Positions 1-19,625 of a DNA stretch of 20,000 nucleotides are shown here, piece after piece. This DNA is from an uncultured virus (IMG/VR IMGVR_UViG_2675903408_000004). Lineage: Duplodnaviria > Heunggongvirae > Uroviricota > Caudoviricetes. The position numbers were made by a program, and so were the translations under genes. The stretch spans positions 55,926-75,925 of IMG/VR virus record IMGVR_UViG_2675903408_000004. One strand, written 5' to 3'. Numbering within the stretch: position 1 is the first letter of the stretch; each line of letters opens with the position of its first letter. Under the pieces are notes generated by a model. The model was not told the DNA's origin. It worked only from the letters and a program-made list of their open reading frames with translations, and searched no databases.

Positions 1-138
1 GAAGATGCAGAGAATCTCTTCAAGAATGAGGAAGAAATTTACTTGCAACAAGAATATGTTGATGGCAATTTCTCTGGAGACATTGTAGTTTCTGAAATTG
101 CAACATATCAATTATCATATGAAAATGAAGCTTCTTAA
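1..138 (+). CDS. 3' end of an acidic hypothetical phage protein (truncated by window edge)
   Basis: Frame 1 is open from base 1 (EDAENLFKNEEEIYLQQEYVDGNF...YENEAS) to TAA at 136-138. Confidence 0.65.
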   Translation, partial: EDAENLFKNEEEIYLQQEYVDGNFSGDIVVSEIATYQLSYENEAS

Positions 139-175
139 TAAAATCGTACTTTCATAGGGAATAGGAGAGGCTACA

Positions 176-412
176 ATGCAAAATACAGTAAAAGTAACTT
201 TCAATGTAAACGGTGTAGAAATCAAAACAGATGCGGGTGTACCACAAATGCCAAATGGTATTAATGCTGACAATATGATTGTTTTGCATGCAAAAAGCAA
301 TTTGAAGAAAAATCTAGGCGTTGATATTTTTGAGGTTATGAATGCAGAGCATTACGAAGATATCGAACATCTCGTGACTATTGACAAATCAGGCTATACT
401 CAAGGTGTTTAA
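176..412 (+). CDS. Hypothetical phage protein, 78 aa
   Basis: RBS AGGAGAGG before ATG; bounded on both sides by the junction palindrome. Confidence 0.8.
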   Translation: MQNTVKVTFNVNGVEIKTDAGVPQMPNGINADNMIVLHAKSNLKKNLGVDIFEVMNAEHYEDIEHLVTIDKSGYTQGV

Positions 413-453
413 ATAAAATCATTCTATTATCAAAATTAGAGAGGGGCAAATTT

Positions 454-1002
454 ATGAACTATAAAGGCAAAATAAATACTGAGTTCTTATTGAAATTAAA
501 TGAGTGTATTAACTTTCTTCCAGATGACCATAACAACTTAAATTGGACTATTGTGTTTTATGATCAACAAAACTTTATTAATGATCATAAGGATAATAAA
601 GTGTATTCGAAAGAACATTACAATAAAATATTAGATAAAAATTCACTTGCTTCAGGATCTACAGTGAGTGAAATTAAAGAAATCCATCTGTTCCTTTTTA
701 AATATGAATTCACTCCAGCTGATTTAATAAAATTAATCGGAAACATTTATCATGAAATTAGACATGCATGGCAATACTCCAATAATATTTATGAAATAGA
801 AAACGAAATCTCTCCTTACGAAGATTTTGAAGCTTATATTAAACAGCCCTGGGAACAAGATGCATATAAGTTTCAGTTGAAATATATGAGAGTACATTAT
901 AACAAGATTTTAGAAATTTTTAATCTGAAAAACTATGTTGTCCCTGTTTACAATTTTCATGAAGATATAATGAAATTTATTAACGAGGAAATAATCAAAT
1001 AA
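454..1002 (+). CDS. Putative zincin-like Zn metallopeptidase (HEXXH), 182 aa
   Basis: IYHEIRHAWQ motif with downstream WEQDA (candidate third ligand E); RBS GAGGGG. Confidence 0.7.
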   Translation: MNYKGKINTEFLLKLNECINFLPDDHNNLNWTIVFYDQQNFINDHKDNKVYSKEHYNKILDKNSLASGSTVSEIKEIHLFLFKYEFTPADLIKLIGNIYHEIRHAWQYSNNIYEIENEISPYEDFEAYIKQPWEQDAYKFQLKYMRVHYNKILEIFNLKNYVVPVYNFHEDIMKFINEEIIK

Positions 1003-1037
1003 ATTAAAAAATGATCTGTTTTAAAGTTAATCTATCT

Positions 1038-1067
1038 AAAAAGAGCATTAATTTAAATGCTCTTTTT
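1038..1067. terminator. Bidirectional intrinsic terminator between convergent genes
   Basis: AAAAAGAGCATT-AATTTA-AATGCTCTTTTT, a perfect 12-bp inverted repeat with A/T tails. Confidence 0.8.
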
Positions 1068-1232
1068 CATACCGCAACGCCGGCATTCACGTAAGAATAT
1101 CCCACTCTTCACAGAGCTTTTGAACAAAGTGTAATCGCAATTGTCGCAGCGACCGTATTTTACATCAGGATACTCTTTGTAATCATAAACGATTGAAGTA
1201 TCATACCCGTTTGTTTCGTATTTCTCTTCCAC
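1053..1232 (-). CDS. Small zinc-ribbon protein, 59 aa (probably SPbeta YoyH-like); not in ORF track
   Basis: RBS AGGTGA then GTG; MEEKYETNGYDTSIVYDYKEYPDVKYGRCDNCDYTLFKSSVKSGIFLRECRRCGMKKSI, with CxxC...CxxC. Confidence 0.75.
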   Translation of the reverse strand: MEEKYETNGYDTSIVYDYKEYPDVKYGRCDNCDYTLFKSSVKSGIFLRECRRCGMKKSI

Positions 1233-1302
1233 AAGATCACCTACATAATTTATTCGACATACTCAAGAATAGCAAATTTCGTTCGATATAGGGAGGGAAC
1301 AA

Positions 1303-1553
1303 ATGATTGGTTTAGCTTAGTTTTTAATTATTTGGCTTGGAGTTGGATTATTGACTGGCATTAAGTTTATTTTTGTTGATCAGGTCTATGATGAAGAGTT
1401 TAAAGAACTCATGGATAAAGAAACAGCAGATGCATGGAAAGGAATTTGGCCAGCCTATTTTTCAAAAATAAGCTTAACGTTATTGCCTTTTTCATGTTAA
1501 TTGGTCTGCTGCCATTAGCAATGAGGATTACAAAATTATTTAAAAGAGGTTGA
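1303..1553 (+). pseudogene. yopE: Disrupted small membrane protein gene (YopE-like, 83 aa when repaired)
   Basis: RBS GGGAGG and ATG at 1303; in-frame TAG at 1318-1320; 1-nt deletion near 1430; two hydrophobic segments (FLIIWLGVGLLTGIKFIFV, VIAFFMLIGLLPLAM); TGA at 1551-1553. Confidence 0.7.
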
Positions 1554-1556
1554 TTT

Positions 1557-1772
1557 ATGCCTTTGCTTGATTATTTTTATGTGTTGCAGTTTGAAAACAA
1601 TGAATACTTCAAATCATTTAAGTTAGATGAGAGCGGTTATTTGACATCCAGTGACCTCCACGAAGCTTCTAAAATGTACAATATGTTAGAAGTCATTGAG
1701 GTTGCAAGTGAGCTCAAAACAAAGTGTAATGTCCAATGTGAGGTAAGGGAAATCCAAGTCGTAAAGCGTTAG
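1557..1772 (+). CDS. yopF: YopF-like hypothetical protein, 71 aa
   Basis: RBS AGAGGT; length and position between yopE-like and yopG-like genes match recalled SPbeta order. Confidence 0.65.
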   Translation: MPLLDYFYVLQFENNEYFKSFKLDESGYLTSSDLHEASKMYNMLEVIEVASELKTKCNVQCEVREIQVVKR

Positions 1773-1782
1773 GAGTATTTAG

Positions 1783-1914
1783 GTGTATTGGATAGAGTGG
1801 ATTGAGGATGGGGAAAAGAAAAGCATTGTGGCAGAAGGTTGGATTGAATGGGTTGCCATACTTGAAGACTTGTATCAGAAGCGGTTTGAGTGTGTTGAAT
1901 GGAAGCGGCTTTGA
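1783..1914 (+). CDS. yopG: YopG-like Trp-rich 43-aa protein; not in ORF track
   Basis: RBS AGGAG then GTG; MYWIEWIEDGEKKSIVAEGWIEWVAILEDLYQKRFECVEWKRL. Confidence 0.65.
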   Translation: MYWIEWIEDGEKKSIVAEGWIEWVAILEDLYQKRFECVEWKRL

Positions 1915-1972
1915 AAAGGGTTGTAAACAAAAATAGAAAGGTAAAAGAAAACAGGCAGGGGAGAGTGCACTC

Positions 1973-2686
1973 GTGTTTAAAACAGAAGTAAATGAATTTT
2001 CTCATAAAATAAAAAGTTTTAACGAGAAATTTCTAACGAATTTTGAACAAAATATAAATAAAATGCTAGATCCTTTAGATTTTAAATATAAGAGTGTAAT
2101 GATAAGTCATGGGTTTCCGCCAAATGGAAACGTTCCACTTCGTTTAACAATTGATGTAGCAAAGATTTTTGATTATTCGGAAGGAGACAAAGAGAAGGAA
2201 TTTTATTATCTTCTATTTAAATATTATGACCATTTTAGAGTTAAATACTTATTAAAAAGCTGGAGTAACATAGATTGGCTAAAGCGTAGGGTTCCTTTGT
2301 TAGAGGAAGCTGTGTTTGCACACAATAACGATTTGTTTTTTCTTTCAATACCTATATTTCTAAGTCAACTTGAAGGGGCGATTGCTGACGGAACTGGGCA
2401 TGTTGGAAAAATGAATTTTTCTTTAGTAAAGGATAAGCTAAAGAGTATATTGGTTAACCAGAAGCTCTTTAAATATGACAAAGAAATTGAAGAGTTTTAT
2501 ATAGAGACTGTACTAAATGGATTTGAACATAATCAGAACATTCCTGTTTTTAGTCGTCATGCGATATTACACGGAGGGGATATTGAATATGGAACAAAAG
2601 AAAACTCATTGAAGGCCATTATTTTATTTGATTACATAATTAAAAAAATTGAAAAGGAAAGTAGAGGGCAAACAATTGTTAATTAG
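1973..2686 (+). CDS. Putative HEPN-like RNase domain protein, 237 aa
   Basis: C-terminal SRHAILHG (R-x4-H) and upstream helix LSIPIFLSQLEG; RBS GGGGAG before GTG. Confidence 0.6.
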   Translation: MFKTEVNEFSHKIKSFNEKFLTNFEQNINKMLDPLDFKYKSVMISHGFPPNGNVPLRLTIDVAKIFDYSEGDKEKEFYYLLFKYYDHFRVKYLLKSWSNIDWLKRRVPLLEEAVFAHNNDLFFLSIPIFLSQLEGAIADGTGHVGKMNFSLVKDKLKSILVNQKLFKYDKEIEEFYIETVLNGFEHNQNIPVFSRHAILHGGDIEYGTKENSLKAIILFDYIIKKIEKESRGQTIVN

Positions 2687-3422
2687 TGAGTATTTAAAGA
2701 TTATTAACGGTGCAACGTTTATTAAAAATTCAAAAGTTAATGACAATGTAGTACTTATTGAATACTTCTCTTCTTTTTGTGACTACAAAGATATAAATAA
2801 ATGCTCCAGTATAACAGAAGAAGACTTTGAAAATTATTTTAACAGCGGGGATAAAATTTTGAAAATTGTGGTTGGTGAACCAGCAAGGATATTTAGGGAA
2901 TTTTCAAACATATCAGCTGTAATAATAAAGCTTCAGGAAATTTCTTATTGTATAACCAGAGCATCTTTAGGTTCTTTAACGAATTTAAATATAAGTGATC
3001 TTTCCACAGAAAACGAATCGTGGAGAAACTTTGCAAATGAACACATTTATAATAAATTGAATCGTCAAAAATTGTATAGCCAAATAAATAATTTTACAGC
3101 AGATCTGCATTTGAGAATTGGCCACAATAATTTGACCTTGGATCAATCATTGCAAGTTTTAAACAGCAAAATTGAGAAAGGAGAAGCAAGAATACTTAAT
3201 AACGGAACAATTGAGTTTGCAGCTCCAGGTACGTTTGATGAACCAGATAAAAAGAACAGTAAATATTCGCTGTTTTTCTTTCAAGGTGCATTAAGAGCAG
3301 CAGGAGAGTTTATAACAAAAAAAGTACTTGATGGTAGTCTGTTAGATTCAATTAAAGACTTTTTGAATGAAAAAGTTGTTATTTCAAATGATATTAATTT
3401 AGAAGTGGAGAAACCAATATGA
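2676..3422 (+). CDS. Hypothetical protein, about 248 aa, coupled to the HEPN-like gene
   Basis: ORF track 2649-3422; more likely start is TTG at 2676 after AGAGGG; overlaps the upstream stop and the downstream ATGA. Confidence 0.7.
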   Translation: MLISEYLKIINGATFIKNSKVNDNVVLIEYFSSFCDYKDINKCSSITEEDFENYFNSGDKILKIVVGEPARIFREFSNISAVIIKLQEISYCITRASLGSLTNLNISDLSTENESWRNFANEHIYNKLNRQKLYSQINNFTADLHLRIGHNNLTLDQSLQVLNSKIEKGEARILNNGTIEFAAPGTFDEPDKKNSKYSLFFFQGALRAAGEFITKKVLDGSLLDSIKDFLNEKVVISNDINLEVEKPI

Positions 3423-3757: not shown

Positions 3758-3771
3758 CCCTCATTGTGTTT
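3743..3771 (+). terminator. Intrinsic terminator after the three-gene module
   Basis: CACAATGAGG-ATTAAC-CCTCATTGTG followed by TTT. Confidence 0.7.
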
Positions 3772-3809
3772 AGGTAAAATAAGAAATTCATTGATTTAAC
3801 AACAAATAA

Positions 3810-3860
3810 AGAATAAAAATAAAATATATACTTGAAATTCTGACAACTATGAGGTATATT
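3810..3860 (+). promoter_or_regulatory. SigA promoter of aimR preceded by the repeated element AGAATAAAAATAAAAT (probable SPBRE)
   Basis: Element at 3810-3825; TTGAAA (3832-3837), 17-bp spacer, TATATT (3855-3860). Confidence 0.7.
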
Positions 3861-3902
3861 ATAAACAAGGGAAGTGATAAGTGAATAAAGGGGGGAGACA
3901 AG

Positions 3903-5057
3903 TTGAAATTAAAACAGTTGATTAAGAACGAATGCGAAAAAGATAATCAGCTTGCAGCTAGACTTGCTAAATTGGCCGGTTATGAAAAAGTAAATGGTTT
4001 TTATAAGTTTGTGAACACCCCAGAAAAAGAAATGGAAAACATAGAAGGTTTAATAAACATCGTAAAAAGCTTGTTTCCTGATAATGAAAAACAGCTATTA
4101 AGTGAATACTTCTTAGAATTAGACCCTAACAAAAAATGTGCAAGACACTCGGTTGAATATTCCGATTTAAATCAGTGGGATGAGCTTACTGACCAGTTAA
4201 TTAAAAATCTTTGTGAATCAACTAATTCAATAAGCCGTGAATGGGGTCAGATTTACTCTATACATAGAAGATTAAATAAAAGTGAAATTACGTTAAATGA
4301 TGCTATAAGAGAAACGGGTAAATTCAGAATAAAAACCCCTGAAATGTTTTTATTTTCAAACATATTAATTATGTACGAATATCTGAAAATTGGTGAATTC
4401 GGTTTAATGAAAAGCACTTCGCAATTTTTAGATATAGAAGAGTTACCTGATGGATTTATTAAAGAATGTTATTATGGCCGAATTGAACTTTTAAAAGCCA
4501 ATATATCCTTGAATGACTACGAATTAGAAGATACCAGGATTCATTGCCAAAAAGTTATTGAAAGTACAAATAACAATAGATTAATTGTATTTGGTTATTT
4601 GACATATGGAAACACATTTATATTTGAAGATTATGAAGAAGCTAAATTATGTTATGAAAAGGGGATGGAATACGCAAAAGAAAATCCTCATCACGTCTAC
4701 AAATTAGAGCTAGCTCTTTGCTTTCTTAATAATGTTTGGGCAAAAGATAATAAATGGATTGATTTTCAGTCAAACGAGATACCGGATATGATTGAGGTTG
4801 CCTATTATTTAGTCAACATGAAGGAACTAGAGAAAGCAGCATCAATTATAGAAAAAATCGAGAAATTGAATGTTTTGGATGATGACTTAGGATTTCTAAA
4901 TCATGTTAAAGGTCTACTGTATGATGATGTCTCCTTCTTTCATGAAAGCATAAAGAAGTTCAAAAAATCCGGCGATAAACTTTGTTTAAATTTGCCTCTT
5001 ATTGAACTTAAAAAACGTGGATATACAGATGAAATATTGAATTTAATTTCACTCTAA
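3903..5057 (+). CDS. aimR: Arbitrium receptor AimR (RRNPP family, HTH plus TPR), 384 aa
   Basis: N-terminus MKLKQLIKNECEKDNQLAARLAKLAGYEKVNGFYKFVNTPEKEMEN closely matches phi3T AimR as recalled; TPR-like helices; directly followed by a secreted-peptide gene ending in RGA. Confidence 0.95.
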   Translation: MKLKQLIKNECEKDNQLAARLAKLAGYEKVNGFYKFVNTPEKEMENIEGLINIVKSLFPDNEKQLLSEYFLELDPNKKCARHSVEYSDLNQWDELTDQLIKNLCESTNSISREWGQIYSIHRRLNKSEITLNDAIRETGKFRIKTPEMFLFSNILIMYEYLKIGEFGLMKSTSQFLDIEELPDGFIKECYYGRIELLKANISLNDYELEDTRIHCQKVIESTNNNRLIVFGYLTYGNTFIFEDYEEAKLCYEKGMEYAKENPHHVYKLELALCFLNNVWAKDNKWIDFQSNEIPDMIEVAYYLVNMKELEKAASIIEKIEKLNVLDDDLGFLNHVKGLLYDDVSFFHESIKKFKKSGDKLCLNLPLIELKKRGYTDEILNLISL

Positions 5058-5087
5058 ATGTTGACATCCTTGAAAGGAGGTGAGAAA

Positions 5088-5213: not shown

Positions 5214-5242
5214 AAAACAAATATAATACATAATACTGTCTT

Positions 5243-5274: not shown

Positions 5275-5289
5275 CTAATTTTAAGGGAA

Positions 5290-5337: not shown

Positions 5338-5493
5338 ATGAAAAAACAATTATTACAAACATTTTCTTATGAAGAAATGGCAAAAGGCTATGAAGAAATG
5401 GCTGCAATCAATTCAACAATAGCACAAGAGGATAATCACCTTGAGAATGAAGCGGAAATGGCTAGATCACGACATAAAACCTTGGCTTCCTAA
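5338..5493 (+). CDS. aimX: AimX, 51 aa, phi3T-type pro-lytic MazE-mimic protein; not in ORF track
   Basis: MKKQLLQTFSYEEMAKGYEEMAAINSTIAQEDNHLENEAEMARSRHKTLAS*; GYEEMAAIN resembles the MazF-binding GYMEMAKIN of B. subtilis MazE; RBS GGGGG; located downstream of aimP. Confidence 0.9.
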   Translation: MKKQLLQTFSYEEMAKGYEEMAAINSTIAQEDNHLENEAEMARSRHKTLAS

Positions 5494-5555
5494 GCAGAAT
5501 GAAACTAAATAAAATAGACATTTTAAACACATCGAGCACATGTGTTTATTTGTCT

Positions 5556-5606
5556 AGAATAAAAATAAAATTAATTATTGCATAATCTGTTGGCAACGGA
5601 TATAAT
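5556..5606 (+). promoter_or_regulatory. SigA promoter of the sro operon preceded by the AGAATAAAAATAAAAT element
   Basis: Element at 5556-5571; TTGCAT (5578-5583), 17-bp spacer, TATAAT (5601-5606). Confidence 0.75.
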
Positions 5607-5850: not shown

Positions 5851-5866
5851 GGAGAATAAAAATAAA

Positions 5867-6112
5867 ATGATCAACAATAAATTTTATACCGAAGAAAATA
5901 AAAAGAAAGTCTGGAAAAAGCATATGATTGTCTTGAAATTCTTAGAGCAACCAGGAATATCAGAAGCATATCTTAATTACTTGCAGGAAGAAATTCATAA
6001 TGATGAATGGATAGGGTTTGAAAATGAATTTTTTGAGGAACTGACTGGCAAACCTGTTATAAATGTAGGCGACAAAATTCAAGCGACAAAACAATATTCA
6101 GCTGTTCATTGA
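5867..6112 (+). CDS. Small protein, 81 aa, second gene of the sro operon (positional equivalent of the pro-lysogenic SroB/phi3T_93 slot)
   Basis: RBS AAGGAG; assignment is positional only. Confidence 0.65.
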   Translation: MINNKFYTEENKKKVWKKHMIVLKFLEQPGISEAYLNYLQEEIHNDEWIGFENEFFEELTGKPVINVGDKIQATKQYSAVH

Positions 6113-6310: not shown

Positions 6311-6320
6311 GGTGGAAACC

Positions 6321-7382
6321 TTGGAAATGAAAAAGCAAACACCATCTGTTAGGGATTACTCCATTTTTAATGACATAAATAGATGGTTTGATGAATTAGA
6401 TTTGAGAAATAGGGACGACAAATCAGTATACATTGAAAAGTCTAATACTAGAACCACCTATGAAAGGCATATTAGAGAATTCTTTAATTATCAAGTTGGA
6501 AAGGATATTGAATATTTAAATGATGAAGATGTAATAATAAAAAAGAATGATTTAATGGATTATAGGATTTATTTGGCTAAAAATAAAAACAATACAAATG
6601 CAACGATTAATAATAAAATCGCAGCACTGAAAAGTTTAATTAAATTCTTGGAGTCAGAGCACGACTGTGACTCAAGCGTTTTTAATTTTAGACCATTGCC
6701 GACAGAGAAGAATCCAGCTGGTTCATTTGAGGGGATTCCTGAAGCTGAAGAGTTTGCGGAAGCTGCATTTATCCATGAGAGACAAAACAGGTTAATGAAA
6801 AAGCTCTTTATTTTATTCAGTGTACGCACAGGCGCAAGAAAGTCAGAAGTCTTACGAGTAAAATGGGAAGACATAACGTATTCATCAAAGTACGATTGTT
6901 ACTTAGTCAATTTCAAGAAGACTAAACAGAAGAAAGCGAGACCAGTAGGTATTTCTAGCTCCTTTTATGAGGAGTTGTTAACACTCAAGAATGAGTATGG
7001 TGACCATGAGCTGATTTTTCATAAATTAACTGTAGACTCAATTAATGATATGTGGCACAGAGTTTGTAGAGTACTAAATATTCCACAGGAAAGAAATCTT
7101 AGGCCACACAGTTTACGAAATACAGCCACTAATTTTTCTTACAATGTAAGCGGAGACATTAAAAAAGTGGCAGCATTTTCAGGACATAAAAACATCAATG
7201 TGCTAAATGACCATTATCTAAATAAGGAAAGGGATTATTCTCAAGATCCTGGTGTTTTAATTGATCAAGATATAGATATTGATTTCCTGGACTCTGTTAC
7301 ATTAGACCAGTTTACACGGTTCTTTTTAGATTGTGATGTTTCCACTCGTAAGAAGCTCAAAAAATTTTTAGAATTAAAATAA
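6321..7382 (+). CDS. yopP: Tyrosine recombinase/integrase-family protein YopP (SroD)
   Basis: N-terminal SAM-like core-binding region; motifs TGARKSE (R), KTK (K), HSLR (HxxR), SGH (H), DHY (Y). Start is likely TTG at 6321 after GAGGTGG. Confidence 0.85.
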   Translation: MEMKKQTPSVRDYSIFNDINRWFDELDLRNRDDKSVYIEKSNTRTTYERHIREFFNYQVGKDIEYLNDEDVIIKKNDLMDYRIYLAKNKNNTNATINNKIAALKSLIKFLESEHDCDSSVFNFRPLPTEKNPAGSFEGIPEAEEFAEAAFIHERQNRLMKKLFILFSVRTGARKSEVLRVKWEDITYSSKYDCYLVNFKKTKQKKARPVGISSSFYEELLTLKNEYGDHELIFHKLTVDSINDMWHRVCRVLNIPQERNLRPHSLRNTATNFSYNVSGDIKKVAAFSGHKNINVLNDHYLNKERDYSQDPGVLIDQDIDIDFLDSVTLDQFTRFFLDCDVSTRKKLKKFLELK

Positions 7383-7466
7383 AAGTGATATAAATAATCA
7401 TATAAATGCTTTACTTGTACGTTAATGTAATGATAAATTTAATATGATTATGTGTGAGGTGATACT

Positions 7467-8813
7467 GTGGTTCAGGATCTGTTGACAACAGATAAGCTTT
7501 TAAAGCTTAAAAATAAAATAGAAGAAGTTGCTTCTGATATTAAACATGATTCCAGAAAAGTAAGGGAAATAAAAGCAGTCATGGGAGCGCAGTATAAAAC
7601 GCTGCCTGGTTATGTACAAGAAATCTTGAATAATAATGATAATAACATTCAACGCTTGAATGAAAAGGAAGTTTATATTTTCTCTAAAGAACTACACAAA
7701 CTTACTGGCGTAGCTGCTTTAGATCCTTTGAGTTATTTCCCACCAAGGCTAGCTAAGGAGTTAGAGGGCGGAAGAATTTTTGCCGGTGAAGAGGTTCTAA
7801 CACTTCCTTATACATTTAAAAACGTAATAAAAATAAATGAAGACAACTATGTGACTTCAATTACTGCGAAAGAATTAAGTGAACTATATAATAGCTCAAT
7901 ACTACAATACAACTATAATACTCAACGTGAAGGCAGATTCATTAAGGGAAGCTTAATACCTGTTCCAAAGACTAATCCTAAATCAGTTGAAGAGATTAAA
8001 GAACTATTTAAAAAAGGCGACTTAATTGTGTCTATGTTTACATTTAATGCACGGTTCGGTACTTCAGATGAGGATGAAGAAATAGAGTACAACCCCAGCG
8101 ACCTAAGCTTAACTGTTACTATGGGTACATTAGTTGATGTTCTAGATGGTTACCATAGAATATCTGGAGTTGTTAAAGCTATAACTGAAGCTCCTGAATT
8201 AGATCAAACCTTTATTTTGAATATCTTAAATTATACTGAAGAAAAAGCAAAACGTCATTTTGCACAAATGAATACAATAAATCCTGTTGAGAAATCAAGG
8301 ATTGAAGAACTTGGCCAAAAACGCTATTCTTCCACTATTGTTGAGCAACTTAAATATAATAGTGAACTCAAAGACAAAATTAGTGTGCAAAGTGAAATTG
8401 GTATGAATAGTCCATTCTTGGTTACTTATTATACTCTTTCTGAAGCAATTGACGATGCTTTTGAGGTCAACTCACGAAGAGATGCTATTCAATTGTCCAA
8501 GTATTTAAGGGACTTCTTTGCTGAGCTTTTCTATGCTTTTCCAGATGATTTTCTTGAAGATAATCTTAGCGAGTCAAGAAACAAATCGTACATCAACTAT
8601 AATGCTATATTTTATGGATACATTTATTTGGCCAAGAAAATACAAGAGAATGATACGCCGTTAGCTAAATTAGGAACGATTTTGCAGCAGGTAGATTTTG
8701 ATAAAGGTAAGACATTCAAGGAGTTAAGCAGCAGAAATTATGAGGAACAATTAAATGCTGCAATGAAGAAAAAACTGAAAAAAGTTTTTTATGATGAAAT
8801 TGATGTTCGTTAG
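7467..8813 (+). CDS. yopQ: YopQ (SroE), DGQHR/DndB-ParB-like domain repressor component, 448 aa
   Basis: VLDGYHR motif, YNYNTQR and FAQMNT segments; lies between yopP and yopR; RBS GAGGTGA. Confidence 0.85.
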   Translation: MVQDLLTTDKLLKLKNKIEEVASDIKHDSRKVREIKAVMGAQYKTLPGYVQEILNNNDNNIQRLNEKEVYIFSKELHKLTGVAALDPLSYFPPRLAKELEGGRIFAGEEVLTLPYTFKNVIKINEDNYVTSITAKELSELYNSSILQYNYNTQREGRFIKGSLIPVPKTNPKSVEEIKELFKKGDLIVSMFTFNARFGTSDEDEEIEYNPSDLSLTVTMGTLVDVLDGYHRISGVVKAITEAPELDQTFILNILNYTEEKAKRHFAQMNTINPVEKSRIEELGQKRYSSTIVEQLKYNSELKDKISVQSEIGMNSPFLVTYYTLSEAIDDAFEVNSRRDAIQLSKYLRDFFAELFYAFPDDFLEDNLSESRNKSYINYNAIFYGYIYLAKKIQENDTPLAKLGTILQQVDFDKGKTFKELSSRNYEEQLNAAMKKKLKKVFYDEIDVR

Positions 8814-9802
<989 letters not shown>

Positions 9803-9803
<1 letters not shown>

Positions 9804-9826: not shown

Positions 9827-10006
9827 CTTACATAACAAAAAGAATAAAAATAAAATAACTAATTTAAATATGAGCTGAATCGTGACATTTAAATATTAGA
9901 TGGTAGGATTTTGTTCGTATTTTCAGAATTCGACAAAAGTAGACAAAGACAACAGGGGTAATTTGTGGTAAAATCAGACTATACCCTAAAAAGGGTACAG
10001 GGAGGT

Positions 10007-10795: not shown

Positions 10796-11035
10796 ATGAA
10801 ACTAGACATTGAAATTGACATGAGAGATAACTTAGCAGCGATTATCTTTAACGTAGGATCTGATAACATATTAACTGGAGAATATTACATAGAAATTGAC
10901 TTTCAGAATAAAGGCAATAAGTTAACGTTGAGGATTGACAGGGCTGCACTGTTGGATCTTAGAGATAAAATTAATGAAACTCTGTGGAAATTGGATGATG
11001 CTAAAACAGTATTAAACAGAGGCTTTACTATGTAA
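10796..11035 (+). CDS. Hypothetical protein, 79 aa
   Basis: RBS TGGAG; ORF track. Confidence 0.7.
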   Translation: MKLDIEIDMRDNLAAIIFNVGSDNILTGEYYIEIDFQNKGNKLTLRIDRAALLDLRDKINETLWKLDDAKTVLNRGFTM

Positions 11036-11061
11036 GTAAAGCTTGTTTTTTAATCAAATTA

Positions 11062-11111
11062 AGAATAAAAATAAAATTACTATTTACATATGATCCCATT
11101 AACTGTATAAT
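11062..11111 (+). promoter_or_regulatory. SigA promoter preceded by the AGAATAAAAATAAAAT element
   Basis: Element at 11062-11077; TTTACA (11083-11088), 17-bp spacer, TATAAT (11106-11111). Confidence 0.7.
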
Positions 11112-11153: not shown

Positions 11154-11393
11154 TTGATTAATGATGCTCAGAATAAAGAAATAAAAAACATGGTCATGAA
11201 AAAGTTTTTAAAGGTTTTTTCTTCATGCAACAGAGCTTTACATAACTTGAATAAAGATGAAATAAGGAAGACTATTGGTGATTTGGACTTTGTTAAGGAC
11301 AACCTCGAAGAAATACAGTTTATTTTGAAGGATATTGTTTTTACATATGATGAGAGAAAGAATGAAATCATTAAGGATCAAAATAAAATGTAA
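11154..11393 (+). CDS. Hypothetical helical protein, 79 aa
   Basis: RBS AAAGGAG upstream; the stop lies inside the spacer of a junction palindrome. Confidence 0.65.
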   Translation: MINDAQNKEIKNMVMKKFLKVFSSCNRALHNLNKDEIRKTIGDLDFVKDNLEEIQFILKDIVFTYDERKNEIIKDQNKM

Positions 11394-11428
11394 GTTTTAT
11401 TTAGAATTTAAATTAAGGAGGACACAGA

Positions 11429-12482: not shown

Positions 12483-12542
12483 CCTTATAAGTTTAACCGG
12501 TTAAAAGATGCATTTTAAATAGAAAATGAGGTGGCTTAATAA

Positions 12543-13909: not shown

Positions 13910-14644
13910 ATGGAATTGTTACAACCAAATCAATATTTTGAAATGATTAAATCAAAGAAAAATAAGGTTACAGACAAAGAACTTCAAAGATATTACGACA
14001 ATTGCTTGGTGTTACTCAATAAGTATAAGCAAACCAATCAAATTAAAGCTGCAAAGAAACTGATATTCCACTTAGAATCAATTGAAAAAGAACGAGAGAT
14101 TGTAAAGCTTGGCATTGATACATTTGTTTATCGAGATGACATTGAAGAATACATAGATAACATTGCAAAAGACACAGTCAAAATTATTGAGCTTGAAAAT
14201 TACGAACGTGAAATCCCTGACGATGTCATCATGAAATACAACAAAGTAAAAGACAAATTGGATCGGTTTTACGTGGTGTTTACAGATTATACGGGGAAGG
14301 TTGAAAGGCAAATCGAAAAAGAACGAAGAGAAAAAGATCCAATTTTATTTGGCACTTTTCAAGATGAGTCAAGCGGTACTCTGATTGAACGTTTTTATTT
14401 CATAGGCGACTGGGAAGATGAATATTGCGATCTCACCTTAGATAAGATGATTTCCGAAGTACAGGAAGCAAAAGAATCCAATATTGCAATGACCATCAAT
14501 ACACCCCAAGATATTGAGCAATTGAAGATACAGTTAAACAACATGGACAAGATAGCAAATGGGTTTAGGATGAACAATCCCGGATTTGCAGTGGTTAACG
14601 AAAAGAAAAATTGGTTTAAAAAACTGTTCAAAAGGACGAAGTGA
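13910..14644 (+). CDS. Hypothetical phage protein, 244 aa
   Basis: RBS AAAGGAG; long ORF containing KDPILFG and FYFIGDWEDEYCDLT segments. Confidence 0.8.
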   Translation: MELLQPNQYFEMIKSKKNKVTDKELQRYYDNCLVLLNKYKQTNQIKAAKKLIFHLESIEKEREIVKLGIDTFVYRDDIEEYIDNIAKDTVKIIELENYEREIPDDVIMKYNKVKDKLDRFYVVFTDYTGKVERQIEKERREKDPILFGTFQDESSGTLIERFYFIGDWEDEYCDLTLDKMISEVQEAKESNIAMTINTPQDIEQLKIQLNNMDKIANGFRMNNPGFAVVNEKKNWFKKLFKRTK

Positions 14645-14991
14645 TGAAAAGAACAGTTGACCTTACTGAAAATAGAGAGTTCATGAAGATCGGAAGTAAC
14701 AAAAGCAAGTCATTATTGCAAAGGTACTTAAAGAAGCGAATATACCCATGGAGTGTAGAAGCAGAAGTAAGACAGAACGACTTTTATAGTAACGGCTTAT
14801 TGTTAACTGGCAACGGCTTTGAAAGGGAAAAACAAAAGGAGTCAGCAGCCTTTGATAAGACGTGTCATTGTTGTGGTAAGTGGGACTCATTCCATATGAC
14901 GATAACTAAATCAACTCTGTGTAAAAGTTGCGAAGAAATGCTTGATCACAGTGTTGTGGGTAATGTCCCTTGGAGAAAGCAGTTTGGATAA
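14641..14991 (+). CDS. Zinc-finger hypothetical protein, 116 aa (YoqA-like by length and context)
   Basis: CHCC...CKSC; overlap with previous stop; its stop is part of a junction palindrome. Confidence 0.7.
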   Translation: MMKRTVDLTENREFMKIGSNKSKSLLQRYLKKRIYPWSVEAEVRQNDFYSNGLLLTGNGFEREKQKESAAFDKTCHCCGKWDSFHMTITKSTLCKSCEEMLDHSVVGNVPWRKQFG

Positions 14992-15025
14992 AAGTAAAAT
15001 TTTAAAGAGAATCGGAGGATGGAAG

Positions 15026-15190: not shown

Positions 15191-15198
15191 GTGGATAA

Positions 15199-15403
15199 GT
15201 GAAATTTGCACCAATGGATAAAGTTAAATTTAAAAAAACTAGTCACTTCAACAAACTTCGAACTTTAAAAAAAAAGAGTTCCTGAATTAGATGATCCTTT
15301 ACTCGGCGAATGCTGGGAATTTGAAGAAGATGGTTTGAAACAATTTGATTGGGAGGAGAACTACGAATTTGTCGCTAGACCCAAACATTTTAATTGGGAT
15401 TAA
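15199..15403 (+). pseudogene. yoqF: YoqF-like gene (67 aa when repaired) broken by an A9 homopolymer
   Basis: GTG at 15199; A-run at 15267-15275; A8 restores MKFAPMDKVKF...LKKRVPELDDPLLGECWEF...PKHFNWD*. Confidence 0.6.
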
Positions 15404-15455
15404 AAACAGAATCTAATTAAAATTGTAGTTTTAAGTTAAATACAGGAGGAGATCA

Positions 15456-16094
15456 GTGATTGCTGAAAAAACTAATGCCTCAGTAAAGATGTATTTAGAG
15501 GATGATATAGCAAGGTTATATAAAGATCATTTTCGATTGATAACGGGGGTAGACCTAAAAAGTAATTTGATAGAGAATAAATCATCTGTAATAAGTGCAA
15601 AAGAGATTGAGAAGTGTATACAGCTGCTACATAAGGATTATCATAACCTAGGGATTAGAATATTTGTGTTTCAAAATAAAATCCAAGCATTGCTTAATTT
15701 TTTGAACCCACTTGGAGCACCTTTTTGCTTAAAAACCATCAGAAGTATCTTTAGAAAACAACTGGTTGGTTTAAATGGGTTTGGGGTTATTCACATTTAT
15801 CCATTCAATTATCCAAAAGATATAACTTGCTACAATCAGACTATAAAGCTCTTTATTCTCGAAACACTGTATCATGAACTTAGACACGCTTACCAAGATG
15901 AGTCTATGACTTGCGTTAAAGATTCGAAATATATAGATGGAGGTCAACCTGGCTATTTTGCACAGAAAAGCGAGCGAGATGCAAGACACTTTGCGACTAG
16001 AATGATGAATAAGTTTCATGATGATATTAATAATATTCTAGGAATAAAGTTTAAATGGGAAACTTGCTGGGGAAGATTAGAGATTTATAAATAA
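15456..16094 (+). CDS. Putative zincin-like Zn metallopeptidase (HEXXH), 212 aa
   Basis: LYHELRHAYQ...SERDA; RBS AGGAGG; flanked by perfect junction palindromes. Confidence 0.7.
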   Translation: MIAEKTNASVKMYLEDDIARLYKDHFRLITGVDLKSNLIENKSSVISAKEIEKCIQLLHKDYHNLGIRIFVFQNKIQALLNFLNPLGAPFCLKTIRSIFRKQLVGLNGFGVIHIYPFNYPKDITCYNQTIKLFILETLYHELRHAYQDESMTCVKDSKYIDGGQPGYFAQKSERDARHFATRMMNKFHDDINNILGIKFKWETCWGRLEIYK

Positions 16095-16136
16095 ATTAAA
16101 ATAAAAAGACTGTTTTAAAGAGAAAGGAGCTGAACC

Positions 16137-16807
16137 ATGGCAATTGATTTTGCAAAACTAAGTGATCCAGAATGGAAAAAGCAGTGGGCTGATGAAAGAA
16201 AAGAACGTGAGCGGCAATTAGAAGAACAAGAAACACTGAGAAAGAAGACAGTTTGCTTTACCGGTCATAGACCAAATAAATTGGGTGGCTATGATATGAG
16301 AAATCTCACAATGCTCAAACTCAAAGATAAGCTGCTTGAAGTGATTGAGGAGTTAATCATAAAAGAAGAGAAGTCCAGGTTTATAACTGGAGGAGCATTA
16401 GGAACTGACCAGGCTGCTTGCTGGTGTGTACATATCTAAAGAAGAAATACCCTCATATCAAAAACATAATTGCCACACCTTTCAAAGAACAAGATAAAGT
16501 TTGGTCTGCAGACCAAAAAATGTGGTACAAACGTATGCTTGATGTTGCAGATGAGATTATTAATGTTGAAGAATTAGATAAATATAAAGTTAGTGGAGAT
16601 AAACCAGGAGAGTTTTCGCCGGCTAAGATGCAAAAGCGAAATGAATACATGATTGATCACAGTGAAGCAATAGTAGCTGTTTATGACGGAAGTAAAAGTG
16701 GGACAAGAAACTGTCTGAATTACGCTAGGAAATCTTACTTAGGACATCAACTATGGAGGCTTCATCCTGATTTTAATTTTGAATTAGATATTACTTATAT
16801 TGCTTAA
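16137..16807 (+). pseudogene. SLOG/DUF1273 (YspA/YoqJ-like) protein split by a 1-nt deletion near 16435
   Basis: VCFTGHRP...FITGGALGTDQ in the first ORF; MQKRNEYMIDHS...AVYDG...SGT in the second; one added base at CATATCTAAAG gives HI-LKKKYPHIK. Confidence 0.75.
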
Positions 16808-16828
16808 AACAAGAATAGGAGGATTAAA

Positions 16829-17236
16829 TTGAGAGAAATAAAGTTTCGGATGTATTCAAAAAAGAAAAAAGTTATGCACTATTGGGATCATATAAAACAG
16901 TTCCAGATGGCAGTGCTTGATGACAATGATGAAAATGAAAAATACAGTTCATGGATGCAATTCACCGGATTGAAGGATAAGAACGGCCGTGAGATTTACG
17001 TGGGGGATTGTTGTACGGCAAAACATAAGTCAGGAAAGGTTTGTATAGGTCAGGTCAAATATGACTTATCGTTTGTTTTTAATATTGAGGGTTTTGAAGA
17101 ATTGTTCATTAACGGAGTAGGAGCCGTGAAAACTAACCGTACCTTTGATATACATTCGTTTATCAAATGGTTTGATGAAGTCGAAGTCATCGGCAACATT
17201 TACGAGAATCCTGAGCTGGTGGAGGCAGCAGAATGA
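16829..17236 (+). CDS. yopX: YopX-family protein, 135 aa
   Basis: MREIKFR...MQFTGLKDKNGREIYVGD...EVIGNIYENPEL signature. Confidence 0.85.
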   Translation: MREIKFRMYSKKKKVMHYWDHIKQFQMAVLDDNDENEKYSSWMQFTGLKDKNGREIYVGDCCTAKHKSGKVCIGQVKYDLSFVFNIEGFEELFINGVGAVKTNRTFDIHSFIKWFDEVEVIGNIYENPELVEAAE

Positions 17237-17523
17237 AAGTGTTAGAGAATCAGACACTTTATCAGTGTGAACACTGTGGAAAACGATTGATGACAAAGCA
17301 CGGAGCTAGGCTACACGAAAGAATATATTGCTCGGTTGTCAAAGAGGAAGAACAGAAAAAACGTCAGGAATCCTGTGAACATAAGCATATGGAAATGAGT
17401 TATTGCACTATGCCGGGAGAAGATCATTTGCAAATACCTGACTATGAATGTTGTTCTGACTGCGGCATGACAGAAATGGAGATTGCAGAGCAAAAGAATA
17501 ATTTTCAGGGGGTGGCAAAATGA
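17233..17523 (+). CDS. Zinc-finger protein, 96 aa (YopY-like by context)
   Basis: YQCEHCGK...HERIYC and CEH...CSDC motifs; ATGA overlap. Confidence 0.75.
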   Translation: MKVLENQTLYQCEHCGKRLMTKHGARLHERIYCSVVKEEEQKKRQESCEHKHMEMSYCTMPGEDHLQIPDYECCSDCGMTEMEIAEQKNNFQGVAK

Positions 17524-17891
17524 AGGAAATTAAATTCCGTTCATGGATTAAAGACAAAAAAGAGATGCTTTATGAATTTACCTTAAAACAACCAACGGTT
17601 AGCCATTGTAAGTCAAACATCCTCATGCAATACACGGGGCTTAAGGATAAGAAAGGGAGGGAAATTTATGAAGAGGATATCTTCCAAACATCTTATATGA
17701 AAAATAGAGGCTGCGCATACCGATGTGTTTTCTCAGCAGAGTTCGGCGGATACCTATTTGATCCTTTTGTAATTGGAGATAAAGATGCTCCTTTATTGGG
17801 CATCGAGGAGTTTGCTCAGCAGTGGGAAGAAGTCAAACATGGTGAAGTTATCGGGAATATTTACGAAAATCCAGAGATTTTGAGTAATTGA
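17520..17891 (+). CDS. Second YopX-family protein, 123 aa
   Basis: MKEIKFRSW...MQYTGLKDKKGREIYEED...EVIGNIYENPEIL. Confidence 0.85.
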   Translation: MKEIKFRSWIKDKKEMLYEFTLKQPTVSHCKSNILMQYTGLKDKKGREIYEEDIFQTSYMKNRGCAYRCVFSAEFGGYLFDPFVIGDKDAPLLGIEEFAQQWEEVKHGEVIGNIYENPEILSN

Positions 17892-17929
17892 ATAAAAGGA
17901 TTATTTTATTCAGAACGGAGGACACGAGG

Positions 17930-18031
17930 ATAGGCTACATTAAATACATAATTGAAACCGCCTGGTTTAACTTAGTTTGGTTTAAATGGCACCTTGGAGC
18001 GGACATAAGCATATTTGACAGCTGCGGATGA
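17930..18031 (+). pseudogene. Probable gene remnant with ATA in place of the start codon
   Basis: Strong RBS GGAGG (17917-17921) 8 nt before ATA-GGC-TAC..., reading IGYIKYIIETAWFNLVWFKWHLGADISIFDSCG*. Confidence 0.4.
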
Positions 18032-18083
18032 AATACATACCAACGAATAAAGGATAAAAATAAAATAAGTGGAGGTTGTGCGG

Positions 18084-18299
18084 ATGATAAAGAGGAATCT
18101 GCTTAGTAACCACGTGGATGAGATTATCGGTGAATATTACGCTACTAAAGGATATTCCGTTCAGAGTATTGATCGCCAAGAAAATGGTCAACTAATTGTT
18201 GTTACGAAGCGAGTAACAGAGGAAAGGGAACCGGAGAAAGTTGATTTAGCATTCGATTTCATACATAAAAGACCACATAGAAAGAAATATCTTGCTTAA
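18084..18299 (+). CDS. Hypothetical protein, about 71 aa
   Basis: RBS GGAGGT at 18071-18076; ATG at 18084. Confidence 0.7.
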   Translation: MIKRNLLSNHVDEIIGEYYATKGYSVQSIDRQENGQLIVVTKRVTEEREPEKVDLAFDFIHKRPHRKKYLA

Positions 18300-18313
18300 A
18301 GGGGGATTAGAAA

Positions 18314-18469
18314 TTGGACAGAATGAAAGAGCTTATTAGAAAAAATCTGAGTCTGAAGAAGATGTTAGAAGCCAACGAAAGAGAGATACTTGAGGAAAAA
18401 CGCAAAATAAGAACTCAAAAATTTTCTCGAAAGTTGATCGAAAGACAGCAAGAAAAAGCATTAGTCTAG
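18314..18469 (+). CDS. Small basic coiled-coil protein, 51 aa; not in ORF track
   Basis: RBS AAGGGGG then [54 protein letters not shown]. Confidence 0.6.
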
Positions 18470-18486
18470 GTGAAGGAGTTAAATTA

Positions 18487-18777
18487 ATGAACACTTATGT
18501 AGTCGATGACAGCAAGTATAAATGTATTTATGCGGGAACCGAGAAAGCAGCTTCTTTTAATAATGAATTTGCAAACGGAACAAGAGTAAGGGTTTGGTTT
18601 GAAGGCCATCACATAAAAACGTTTGAGAAAGAACAAAGAGAAGTCTGTGGAGTAGGAGATTGGATCCTTAAGTATGATGCTGCTACTGAATTGCAAAAGG
18701 AAGTAAATCGTTTGGAAAAGACATATTTCAAGAAGAAAGAATTGTTAGACACTATTAGACAAGCTGATGAAGTCTAA
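18487..18777 (+). CDS. Hypothetical protein, 96 aa
   Basis: RBS AAGGAG; ORF track. Confidence 0.75.
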
Positions 18778-18822
18778 ATAAAAGATAGTTTTTAATGAAA
18801 ATAAATCAATGGAGGAATTTTA

Positions 18823-19578
18823 TTGGAATATAACTTAACAGTAACAGAACAGGATGGACAATTTTTGGTGGATAGTCGTGAAGTGGCGGAGTTGATCGGT
18901 AAGCGTCATGATCATTTACTTCGTGACATTGAAGGATACGTTACGGTTTTGAGTCAAACCCCAACTTTGGGGGCTGACGAATATTTCGTTAAAAGTACAT
19001 ATCAGTCAGGAACAGGAAAGAGTTATAAACATTATCTTCTTACAAAAATGGGCTGTGAAATGGTTGCCAATAAAATGATTGGTGAGAAAGGTATTATCTT
19101 TTCAGCTCAATATGTAAAAGCGTTTAATCGAATGGAAAAAGAATTAATGCAGCCAAAAACAGAGCTAGAGGTTTTAGCTGCAACAGTTAATAATATGGTA
19201 CAGCAAGAAAAACGAATAACTGTTATTGAAAATGAGCAAAAGAGGATCTTTGATTTGATTGGATTGAATCCATCGAATTGGAGAAAAGAAATCAACAAAA
19301 TTATTAGATTAATAGCAAAAGAAAGTGGGTTAAGTCACTCGGCAGTATGGTCTGAGAGTTACAAAACCTTAGAAACCCGAGGGAAATGTAATCTGCAAAG
19401 AAGACTTGATAATAAAAGAAATAACATGAAAAAAGAGGGAGCGTCTAAAACAAAAGTAGAAAAAGCAAACTTTATGGATATCATTGATGAAGATCCAAAG
19501 CTTACAGAGATTTTCTTAGCGATTGTTAAAGATATGGCTGTGAAGTATAAGGTGACCTTCAAGAAAGAAACTGCATAA
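18823..19578 (+). CDS. yoqD: Rha-family phage regulator/antirepressor (YoqD-like), 251 aa
   Basis: VDSREVAELIGKRHDHLLRDI...YLLTKMGC...YVKAFNRME Rha signature plus C-terminal WRKEIN...LQRRLDN domain; RBS GGAGG. Confidence 0.8.
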   Translation: MEYNLTVTEQDGQFLVDSREVAELIGKRHDHLLRDIEGYVTVLSQTPTLGADEYFVKSTYQSGTGKSYKHYLLTKMGCEMVANKMIGEKGIIFSAQYVKAFNRMEKELMQPKTELEVLAATVNNMVQQEKRITVIENEQKRIFDLIGLNPSNWRKEINKIIRLIAKESGLSHSAVWSESYKTLETRGKCNLQRRLDNKRNNMKKEGASKTKVEKANFMDIIDEDPKLTEIFLAIVKDMAVKYKVTFKKETA

Positions 19579-19625
19579 AATATTTATTTTATCGAAAGGG
19601 GGTAAGAGAAGGACAAATTAAACGC

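Follow-up and report, generated by a model that had tools for sequence, protein, structure and literature searches.

The DNA analysed here (the window) is the last 20 kb of the 75.9-kb virus record IMGVR_UViG_2675903408_000004, and the element under study is a short palindrome, WTAAAA-N6-TTTTAW, that recurs at its gene junctions. The closest matches of the window are the SPbeta-like Bacillus phages BUCT083, SPbetaL1-L8, phi3T and SPBc2, which align at 90-95% identity, cover just 8-50% of a 9-kb query and are split into several pieces. The window carries an aimR-like gene, the yopP-Q-R operon and, 3′ of yopR, small genes to which Pfam assigns a helix-turn-helix (HTH) protein, a DUF3920 protein, a YpsA/SLOG protein, two YopX-family proteins and one Rha-family protein. 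The palindromes are listed below with the six bases between their arms (the centre), the neighbouring open reading frames (ORFs) and any nearby ends of BLAST high-scoring segment pairs (HSPs).

5509..5526: palindrome, centre TAGACA, 15 nt after the stop codon of ORF 5338-5493; a copy of another repeat, the SPBRE-like element, is next at 5558
11383..11400: palindrome, centre TGTAAG, with the stop codon of ORF 11154-11393 inside the centre
12501..12518: palindrome, centre GATGCA; an HSP starts at 12501-12502
14988..15005: palindrome, centre GTAAAA; the left arm holds the stop codon of ORF 14641-14991 and a yoqE-like gene is next
15417..15434: palindrome, centre TTGTAG, a 1-nt variant of the TTGAAG of relatives; HSPs end at 15418-15427
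16101..16118: palindrome, centre AGACTG; 10 HSP starts at 16089-16101
17892..17909: palindrome, centre GGATTA, abutting the stop codon of the YopX-family gene 17520-17891; 18 HSP starts at 17887-17893
18778..18795: palindrome, centre GATAGT, between ORF 18487-18777 (directly upstream) and the Rha-family gene 18823-19578
19575..19592: palindrome, centre TATTTA; the left arm holds the stop codon of the Rha-family gene
138..155: variant site, centre TCGTAC, right arm TTTCA (1 mismatch); HSPs start at 137-138 and end at 152-161
413..430: variant site, centre TCATTC, right arm TATTA (1 mismatch)
3774..3791: decayed site (3 changes) upstream of the aimR-like gene, the flank-anchored counterpart of the TACGAA site of relatives

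Copy number and anatomy of the junction palindrome

The nine perfect copies reported by an earlier sequence-only reading of the window lie exactly where it had placed them, against a chance expectation of 0.17 copies (200 dinucleotide shuffles; maximum 2; 0/200 reach 9). Relative to a junction-matched background, made up of the intergenic DNA together with the terminal 15 nt at either end of every gene (3,890 nt, 29.9% GC), the junction class holds 8/9 of the perfect copies versus 0.062 expected, and 0/2000 first-order Markov simulations reach 8. The ninth lies beneath an ORF retained by the crude ORF caller and is probably the copy at 17892, beneath the 47-aa ORF 17888-18031. The two backgrounds rule out chance or base composition as the source of the perfect copies and bear out the earlier estimate of well under one chance copy per 20 kb, while matches with up to two mismatches show no enrichment as a class (49 versus 40.3 expected; 19/200 shuffles reach 49). 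When the spacing between the arms is scanned from 0 to 14, N6 yields 16 copies in the whole 75.9-kb record and 33 in SPbeta, and any other spacing yields 0-2 in each. The spacer is therefore 6 bp, and it differs in each of the nine window copies, both as first described. Two of the 33 SPbeta copies (2628, 116414) fall within annotated stem_loop features of record NC_001884, and 0/33 are labelled as a repeat in its annotation.

Three of the degenerate copies that had been named are upheld by relatives. The centre at 138 (TCGTAC) occurs in perfect sites there, the centre at 413 (TCATTC) is perfect in 14 instances, always next after TCGTAC, and the upstream hairpin flank of the decayed site at 3774 precedes a perfect ATAAAATACGAATTTTAA in L010, L017, L019 and, likewise, L015 and L030; in SPbeta it precedes a perfect TTGGAA-centred site. 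The other two are dropped: the match at 1007 (2 mismatches) has no counterpart in relatives and is unsupported as a site, and that at 11036 (2 mismatches) belongs to a terminator-like hairpin (11020-11044), of which it forms the descending arm. A further match with one mismatch, at 9850, lies within a copy of the SPBRE-like element.

The palindrome forms the unvarying inner part of a 28-bp dyad with two-fold symmetry and an 11-6-11 layout, TYTnnWTAAAA-N6-TTTTAWnnARA. Over 128 distinct centres read on both strands, the half-site profile is T 75%, Y 83%, T 62%, two free positions, W 92% and TAAAA. These 128 distinct sites have the inverted ~11-bp arms and strict 6-bp central region of Xer core sites, with inner arm bases strongly kept, outer ones weakly kept and the centre free between sites, and the arms-plus-spacer anatomy of a tyrosine-recombinase core site that had been proposed thus stands. 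In one-mismatch versions of known sites (n=63), TTTCA occurs 27 times, TTTAA 8 times and the mirror-image TGAAA 9 times, and 44/63 single mismatches fall on the second or fifteenth core base. The arms are kept in sequence, with variants that disrupt pairing and no compensatory changes. RNA hairpins of the nine window sites range from -0.1 to -6.8 kcal/mol, with 6/9 weaker than -1.5, and the flanks are two-fold symmetric regardless of gene direction. The symmetry, the strict spacing and the position-specific tolerance together suggest that a protein dimer binds the dyad as double-stranded DNA, and argue against a structure formed by RNA, as far as sequence patterns can indicate.

The placement of the sites relative to genes is equally regular and agrees with the initial description of copies at, or within about 20 nt after, a stop codon and ahead of a ribosome-binding site. 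The stop codon is inside the site at 11383, 14988 and 19575 and 0-19 nt upstream of the sites at 5509, 12501, 15417, 16101, 17892 and 18778, and on the upstream side it often fills the two free positions and the preceding T. A strong Shine-Dalgarno (SD) sequence is present within 45 nt downstream in 84/176 distinct family contexts, and in 69 of these 84 it starts 0-14 nt after the core. Perfect copies are absent from yopP-Q-R (6312-9803), as had been noted. No promoter hexamers occur within the motif, and promoter-like sites in the window number 83 versus 84.3 by chance. The earlier claim that the units between sites mostly lack promoters fails for at least one unit, bounded by two junction palindromes, which contains the SPBRE-like, promoter-like copy at 18053.

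A late-gene site at SPbeta 50181-50198 (L002:5181) has the ribosome-binding site of yonB within its centre, reading AAAGGAGTA on the reverse strand with ATG directly after the arm. The same site with the yonB SD is found in genomes G041, G045 and G022, with one base change in the more distant G022.

Slot-specific centres and gene exchange

Comparisons were made over 30 related loci. In all 30 the centres follow one order: TCGTAC, TCATTC, TACGAA, the yopM-R genes, TGTAAG, GATGCA, GTAAAA, TTGAAG and AGACTG, and after AGACTG come TCGTGA, GATAGT, TATTTA/TAGTTA and CAGAGA. The order is also kept over ~50 kb in G001, G041 and G045 versus SPbeta. Every site is thus marked by a conserved 6-bp centre of its own, an "address" that is tied to the slot and not to the cassette, and the question posed earlier, whether spacers travel with cassettes, is answered in the negative. 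The centre TGTAAG, for example, has 25 occurrences (SPbeta pieces, IMG/VR loci and the window) and is always the first site after a yopR-like gene. The centre TAGACA of 5509 is also present in L007, and a 1-nt variant, TGGACA, occupies the matching place in L004-L006 and L008. The site at 17892 appears in relatives as a TTTCA-arm variant.

Conservation of the centres was measured in pairs of sites anchored by one homologous flank only, to avoid circularity. Of the 525 unique pairs anchored downstream, the core is perfect and the centre shared in 320; a single arm change with an unaltered centre is seen in 63, a single centre change in 19, some other centre in 20, an arm change together with a differing centre in 15 and no site in 88. 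The 718 upstream-anchored pairs divide in the same classes into 414, 79, 68, 5, 17 and 135. One-base changes in the flank-anchored pairs amount to 87 over the 6 centre positions and 142 over the 10 arm positions, approximately equal per base, and 20-26% of retained sites carry any change, compared with a per-base divergence of 5-6.5% in the adjacent 70-nt coding anchors. In these alignments the centres are conserved as strongly as the arms, a descriptive statement as the pairs are not phylogenetically independent.

Around these conserved addresses the genes differ. Identical 18-mers, centre included, occur in many combinations with as many as 8-11 unrelated flank families on the upstream side and 7-9 on the downstream side; the centre GATGCA (29 loci) has 8 unrelated upstream and 9 unrelated downstream flank families, and AGACTG (27 loci) has 11 and 7, respectively. 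In the window, BLAST homology to relatives begins or ends at 7/9 sites (12501, 14988, 15417, 16101, 17892, 18778 and 19575). At 14988, where HSPs start at 14977-14987 and end at 14993-15005, the site and the downstream gene are shared with SPbeta 86885 and the upstream flank is unrelated. At SPbeta 92393 the centre is GATAGT, as at window 18778, with both flanks unrelated, and at SPbeta 92752 it is TATTTA, as at window 19575; the interval between these two addresses holds the Rha gene in the window and yoqT, on the other strand, in SPbeta. A motif-blind test asked which single-copy 14-mers occur in 6 or more loci and have, on each side, 3 or more unrelated flank families. Of the 21 places returned, 14 are motif sites, 3 fall in a single other linker, 2 resemble SPBRE and 2 are other sequences; 10 of the 14 motif sites have a perfect core in context and 4 read as variants or edges. 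The first W of the motif segregates with the sequence upstream and the last W with that downstream, which places the crossovers within the 16-bp core.

The units between sites comprise 1-5 genes, and the content between two addresses varies. The slot from TGTAAG to GATGCA has 20 distinct contents in 22 loci (723-3131 bp), that from GATGCA to GTAAAA 9 in 14 loci and that from AGACTG to TCGTGA 10 in 12 loci; the slot from TACGAA to TGTAAG, which holds the core operon, has 1 content in 18 loci. In 7/23 phage records, homology to SPbeta runs out at 116431, where the site at 116414-116431 ends, and SPbeta/phi3Ts homology begins exactly at the site at 113663. In the phi3Ts-SPbeta hybrid Hyb2, the crossover falls in a long stretch downstream of 113663 that is identical in both parents, and it is not locatable within it. 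As described by Dragos et al. (bioRxiv 10.1101/2020.05.06.055103), one junction, after yosA, is 'non-homologous'; this junction may lie at the site at 116414.

Taken together, the addresses keep one order in relatives while the intervening genes differ, and on this comparative evidence the sites are preferred, though not the sole, joints for the exchange of accessory-gene blocks among related phages. The proposal that they serve to insert and reorder genes thus survives as regards exchange, and reordering is exceptional (20/525 pairs). One case is the Rha/yoqD-like gene, which lies after the centre GATAGT in the window and after GATGCA in SPbeta, and the difference in gene order from SPbeta that had been noted earlier is real.

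The yoqJ/YpsA (SLOG)-like gene at 16296-16804 lies in two reading frames with a break at ~16436 (residues 1-47 of the product in one frame, 48-170 in another) and looks like a frameshifted gene. The yoqF-like gene at 15205-15400 aligns with SPbeta yoqF through residues 3-26 in one frame and 8-67 in another, and this two-frame start may reflect a frameshift or a different start. The ~160 nt 3′ of the site at 17892 (17910-18068) contain an SD-like GGAGG and no ORF of at least 40 codons with a usual start, and the downstream gene of this slot may have decayed. The DUF3920-like gene at 15456-16094 is next after the site at 15417.

YopP-like recombinases and a proposed mechanism of exchange

The sites are a property of the phage family. 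SPbeta-family genomes have ~30 copies each (33 in SPbeta), distributed throughout the 130-kb genome, late genes among them, and the 28 IMG/VR loci around yopR homologues have 4-10 copies each in ~21 kb. Genome G001 contains 60 copies versus 11 for a reversed-pattern control, with at least 21 of them in 48 kb of prophage next to a YopP-like gene. A YopP-like gene (E <= 1e-20) is present in 9/91 host-family genomes, where the motif excess over control is 49, 42, 38, 32, 26, 22, 16, 13 and 3, compared with a median of 3 in the other 82 genomes (Mann-Whitney p = 1.5e-5). Around the YopP-like genes themselves, the copies number 35, 32 and 27 per 120 kb in G045, G041 and G022, 21 and 16 per 80 kb in G091 and G081, 10 in 25 kb in G008, 7 in 20 kb in G021 and 6 in 21 kb in the IMG/VR locus L034. 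A de novo scan of five of these neighbourhoods (G091, G081, G008, G021 and L034) ranks TAAAA-N6-TTTTA as the top palindromic pentamer pair in 5/5, among them neighbourhoods whose recombinase has no more than 27-33% identity and whose centres are all different. The arms are therefore constant across the family and the centres lineage-specific, and no covariation between recombinase type and arm sequence is seen, the arms being invariant across all YopP types. Searches for loci with single distant YopP relatives returned none for P0006 and one locus for P0008.

The genes of the window that bear on a possible enzyme are as follows.

3903-5057: AimR-like gene (Pfam)
6312-7382, + strand: yopP-like gene, encoding an Xer-like tyrosine recombinase and the candidate enzyme for the sites (Pfam, catalytic residues, profile)
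7467-8813: yopQ-like gene, encoding a DndB/ParB-like protein (Pfam)
8832-9803: MrpR/YopR gene (Pfam)

The window YopP matches Pfam Phage_integrase (2.6e-15) and Phage_int_SAM_1 and has all of the catalytic residues R, K, H-x-x-R, H and Y. In an alignment of the YopP family (n=29, 26-94% identity), all members share Arg-I, the hairpin Lys, His-II, His-III and Tyr, and 25/29 have Arg-II. A family profile compared with solved structures finds XerA, XerD and XerH first, above IntI4, whose match spans only profile positions 222-286 (65 positions). In the literature yopP is a core gene that is reported to be transcribed in the lysogen (bioRxiv 10.1101/2021.11.22.469490; PMC10516654), YopP is described only as having an XerC-superfamily domain and SPbeta integration is carried out by the serine recombinase SprA (PMC8612738); the passages of these three sources that treat SPbeta genes assign no function to YopP. 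YopQ is 38% identical to its SPbeta counterpart and YopR 77% identical to the type found in most related IMG/VR loci. The yopP and yopQ genes (window 6312-8813; SPbeta L002:33691-36256) seem to be deeply diverged alleles within an otherwise conserved operon. A second recombinase gene, YomM-like and 64% identical to SPbeta YomM, is located at 21104-22105 on the minus strand of G000:C1 and ends ~27 nt from a palindrome at 21060 with centre GAGGGA.

The reading that we tentatively favour is matched-centre exchange between co-resident phages by a phage Xer-like recombinase, akin to recombinase-mediated cassette exchange. A phage tyrosine recombinase, likeliest YopP (6312-7382) with YomM as the alternative, would bind both arms as a dimer and carry out strand exchange over the 6-bp centre of two sites that lie on separate genomes in the same cell, such as a prophage and a superinfecting relative. 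Strand exchange would need identical centres and recombination would hence be limited to sites of the same address, two such events swapping the cassette in between. A requirement for identical centres would account for the kept order, for the lack of deletions within one genome despite ~30 similar sites and for the conservation of the centres. A fuller version, which we hold about as tentatively, is that SPbeta-family phages possess a genome-wide set of ~30 heterospecific Xer-like sites with shared arms and a unique 6-bp address for each slot, on which YopP, perhaps with YomM or the ParB-like YopQ, swaps cassettes in register.

A number of observations weigh against recombinase-driven, centre-matched exchange. 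Junctions without the motif are mosaic too, with 175/230 unique adjacencies variable compared with 158/168 at junctions with the motif, and motif-less breakpoints occur at the window junctions 13866, 16800, 17236 and 18300. Breakpoints map to the motif at 7/9 window sites, though not exclusively; genes preceding a motif do have more distinct successors than those without one (4.27 versus 2.58, p = 1.7e-4). A non-palindromic 17-nt stop/start linker, GGAGGGYGCGGARTGAG, occurs in 16 distinct flank contexts with at least 6 upstream and at least 9 downstream families. It contains an SD as well as stop and start codons that overlap (ATGA/GTGA), with ..EGAE* as the common end of the protein, and it is found at the following positions.

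L005:13336, L009:13289, L016:14447 and L016:14916: copies of the GGAGGGYGCGGARTGAG linker
~17218-17238 of the window: related junction

This linker has no dyad and combinatorial flanks, and a short conserved sequence can therefore be a joint here without a dyad. Furthermore, the same downstream gene stands behind a different centre in 20/525 pairs, which strict centre-matching fails to explain, and the conservation of the centres could in part be ascertainment, as only cassettes in at least 2 loci can be anchored. On the side of the enzyme, SPbeta-type YopP (4/29) and YomM have Lys at Arg-II, yet SPbeta keeps 33 sites; the window YopP is 34% identical to SPbeta YopP, yet both phage groups share identical sites; and sites are retained in G012, in SPbeta-like remnants that have no YopP-like gene. 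The co-occurrence of YopP and the sites could be merely shared phage ancestry, and the link between them, drawn from sequence comparison, is circumstantial.

Many of the same observations sit well with a different division of labour, in which the dyad docks a phage protein that is not a recombinase and exchange occurs by short homology, through RecA or the Sak4-like YorG, with the conserved 16-18 bp as the sole homology. Candidates for docking are the ParB/DndB-like YopQ, an Xre-type HTH protein or a catalytically idle YopP in a roadblock, silencing or architectural role. We regard this as the main rival, only somewhat less likely than the favoured reading. It is favoured by the GGAGGGYGCGGARTGAG linker and the mosaic motif-less junctions, by the Sak4-like annealing protein and other recombination genes in the SPbeta annotation and by the second catalytic Arg missing from SPbeta-type YopP and YomM, and homology-driven exchange predicts the same pattern of identical centres and collinear order at the joints. 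A 5-N6-5 layout also suits HTH dimers. In this phage family MrpR provides a case of a recombinase fold turned pure DNA binder (PMC10516654). The conservation of the centres is harder to reconcile with docking, as a dimer that reads the arms needs no centre as conserved as its arms. The same is true of the many independent joins at each of more than 10 sites, as an identity of 16 bp is very short for homologous recombination. In addition, YopP-family members with as little as 26-40% identity still have the catalytic residues, and the 11-6-11 anatomy, with only the inner 5 bp fixed, is that of Xer sites.

Exchange by the host rather than the phage is improbable. The host Xer recombinases CodV/RipX would act on the sites, as host XerC/D does on pdif in Acinetobacter plasmids and on IMEX, and the same 28-bp 11-6-11 layout in B. 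subtilis dif (PMC5357621), the persistence of sites in prophage remnants without yopP and the precedent of pdif modules, with many Xer sites flanking accessory modules (PMC6449649), are in its favour. Against these stand the concentration of the motif in the prophage and not in the host chromosome (G001) and the Xer-like gene of the phage itself.

An element acting at the level of RNA, an AU hairpin before the ribosome-binding site for processing, stability or translation insulation with exchange as a by-product, is very unlikely. Although the constant position after the stop codon, the SD 0-14 nt downstream in 69/84 contexts and the SD within the centre at SPbeta 50181 fit such a role, the weak hairpins, the arms conserved in sequence with variants that break pairing, the flank symmetry independent of gene direction and the per-site conservation of centres, which a loop does not need, all speak against it. 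Reads on the SPbeta-type prophage stretch of G041 number 650 in X24 (Ribo-seq), in 15/30 bins and with no ends at the sites, and zero in X21 and X22, and X1 consists of contigs; they carry no weight for or against RNA processing and yield no joints.

The integron-like shuffling first proposed, with attC-bearing mobile cassettes, an integron-type integrase, an attI site and free reordering, is scarcely credible: the 1-5-gene units, the tyrosine recombinase encoded nearby and the occasional cassette in another slot (20/525 pairs) are outweighed by centres that are positional and collinear in 30 loci rather than cassette-borne, a site size fixed at 28 bp, a YopP-family profile that prefers Xer proteins to IntI4 and sites that are genome-wide, late operon included, rather than one array behind one attI.

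It is an old open question whether phage mosaicism at gene boundaries arises by illegitimate recombination and selection or through dedicated linkers. The SPbeta family, a well-studied model, offers sequence-defined joints with per-slot addresses and an orphan recombinase of the matching site type, which makes the question directly testable in Bacillus subtilis. If true, exchange by a phage recombinase at matched centres would explain the fast turnover of small accessory genes, including defence and counter-defence genes. It would also provide a function for YopP, supply naturally orthogonal recombination sites and put the 'linker' idea of modular phage evolution on a physical footing. If exchange is only homology-driven, the sites would still define the exchange units of the family and hint at a further site-specific DNA-binding protein.

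Comparison with known elements

No description of the motif or of addressed joints in SPbeta-like phages was found in the literature, in a search that did not extend to the original genome paper (Lazarevic et al. 1999). Within the same phages, the closest parallel is SPBRE, the operator of MrpR (YopR), a protein with a tyrosine-recombinase fold; SPBRE is intergenic in SPbeta and has a 15-bp motif (PMC10516654). Both are short AT-rich elements repeated in intergenic DNA. The SPBRE-like element of the window, RRTAAAAATAAAAT, differs in having another sequence, no dyad with a free centre and a location at promoters. Its six copies, versus 0.04 expected by chance, are listed here.

3812-3825: RRTAAAAATAAAAT
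5558-5571: RRTAAAAATAAAAT
5855-5868: RRTAAAAATAAAAT
9843-9856: RRTAAAAATAAAAT
11064-11077: RRTAAAAATAAAAT
18053-18066: RRTAAAAATAAAAT

The repeat pattern and the position upstream of aimR-, yopM- and yopV-like genes suggest that RRTAAAAATAAAAT is SPBRE. As this is a different repeat located elsewhere, the junction palindrome is rejected as an MrpR operator. It is likewise rejected as a promoter of YonO, for which a single start site, upstream of yonK, has been mapped (PMC5467207).

The PeSL elements of T4-type phages are also short intergenic repeats, located in hyperplastic regions, where small non-essential gene modules shuffle; they consist of a strong sigma-70 promoter and a terminator stem-loop, and shuffling proceeds by homology recombination with mini-circles (PMC2839356). 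The SPbeta-family motif, in contrast, has no promoter consensus and weak hairpins, on which grounds identity with PeSL is rejected, and its unique centres should prevent exchange between neighbouring copies. An integron resembles the SPbeta-family layout in its small promoterless gene units between recombination-type sites and its tyrosine recombinase. The attC site is a longer imperfect palindrome that travels with the cassette and acts as a folded single strand. Identity with attC is rejected in view of the positional, collinear centres, the fixed 28-bp size and a profile that favours Xer over IntI.

The anatomy of the sites is most like that of the core sites of single-recombinase systems, difH/XerH of Helicobacter and Campylobacter and XerS/difSL, with inverted ~11-bp arms around a 6-bp central region. 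XerH covers 11 + 10 bp, with base-specific reading only of the inner 5 bp and hardly any contact to the 6-bp centre (PMC5241119), difH reads ..TGAAAA-CTGCAC-TTTTCA.. (PMC3325230) and B. subtilis dif likewise has the 11-6-11 layout (PMC5357621). The inner A-tract arms correspond, GAAAA-N6-TTTTC in difH and TAAAA-N6-TTTTA in the SPbeta family, and differ in the fifth arm base, which is T here and G in difH. Whereas dif is a single site per chromosome for dimer resolution, the SPbeta family has ~30 intergenic sites, each with a different centre. We know of no FtsK-type control for the SPbeta-family sites.

The pdif sites of Acinetobacter plasmids share with them the arrangement of many 28-bp Xer-type sites that flank accessory modules, in pdif shuffled between replicons (PMC6449649, PMC13141974). 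In pdif, host XerC/D acts on distinct XerC and XerD arms in alternating orientation and modules move between places, unlike the SPbeta family with its near-symmetric arms, phage-encoded Xer-like gene, slot-specific centres and fixed order. In design the sites resemble heterospecific lox and FRT sites, which also have shared arms and different spacers, the dependence on spacer identity being suggested here by comparative data. For heterospecific lox and FRT sites, only identical spacers recombine, and two different sites permit clean cassette exchange without deletion. Cassette exchange of this kind is a laboratory design with Cre or Flp; the SPbeta-family layout would be a natural counterpart that extends over the whole genome.

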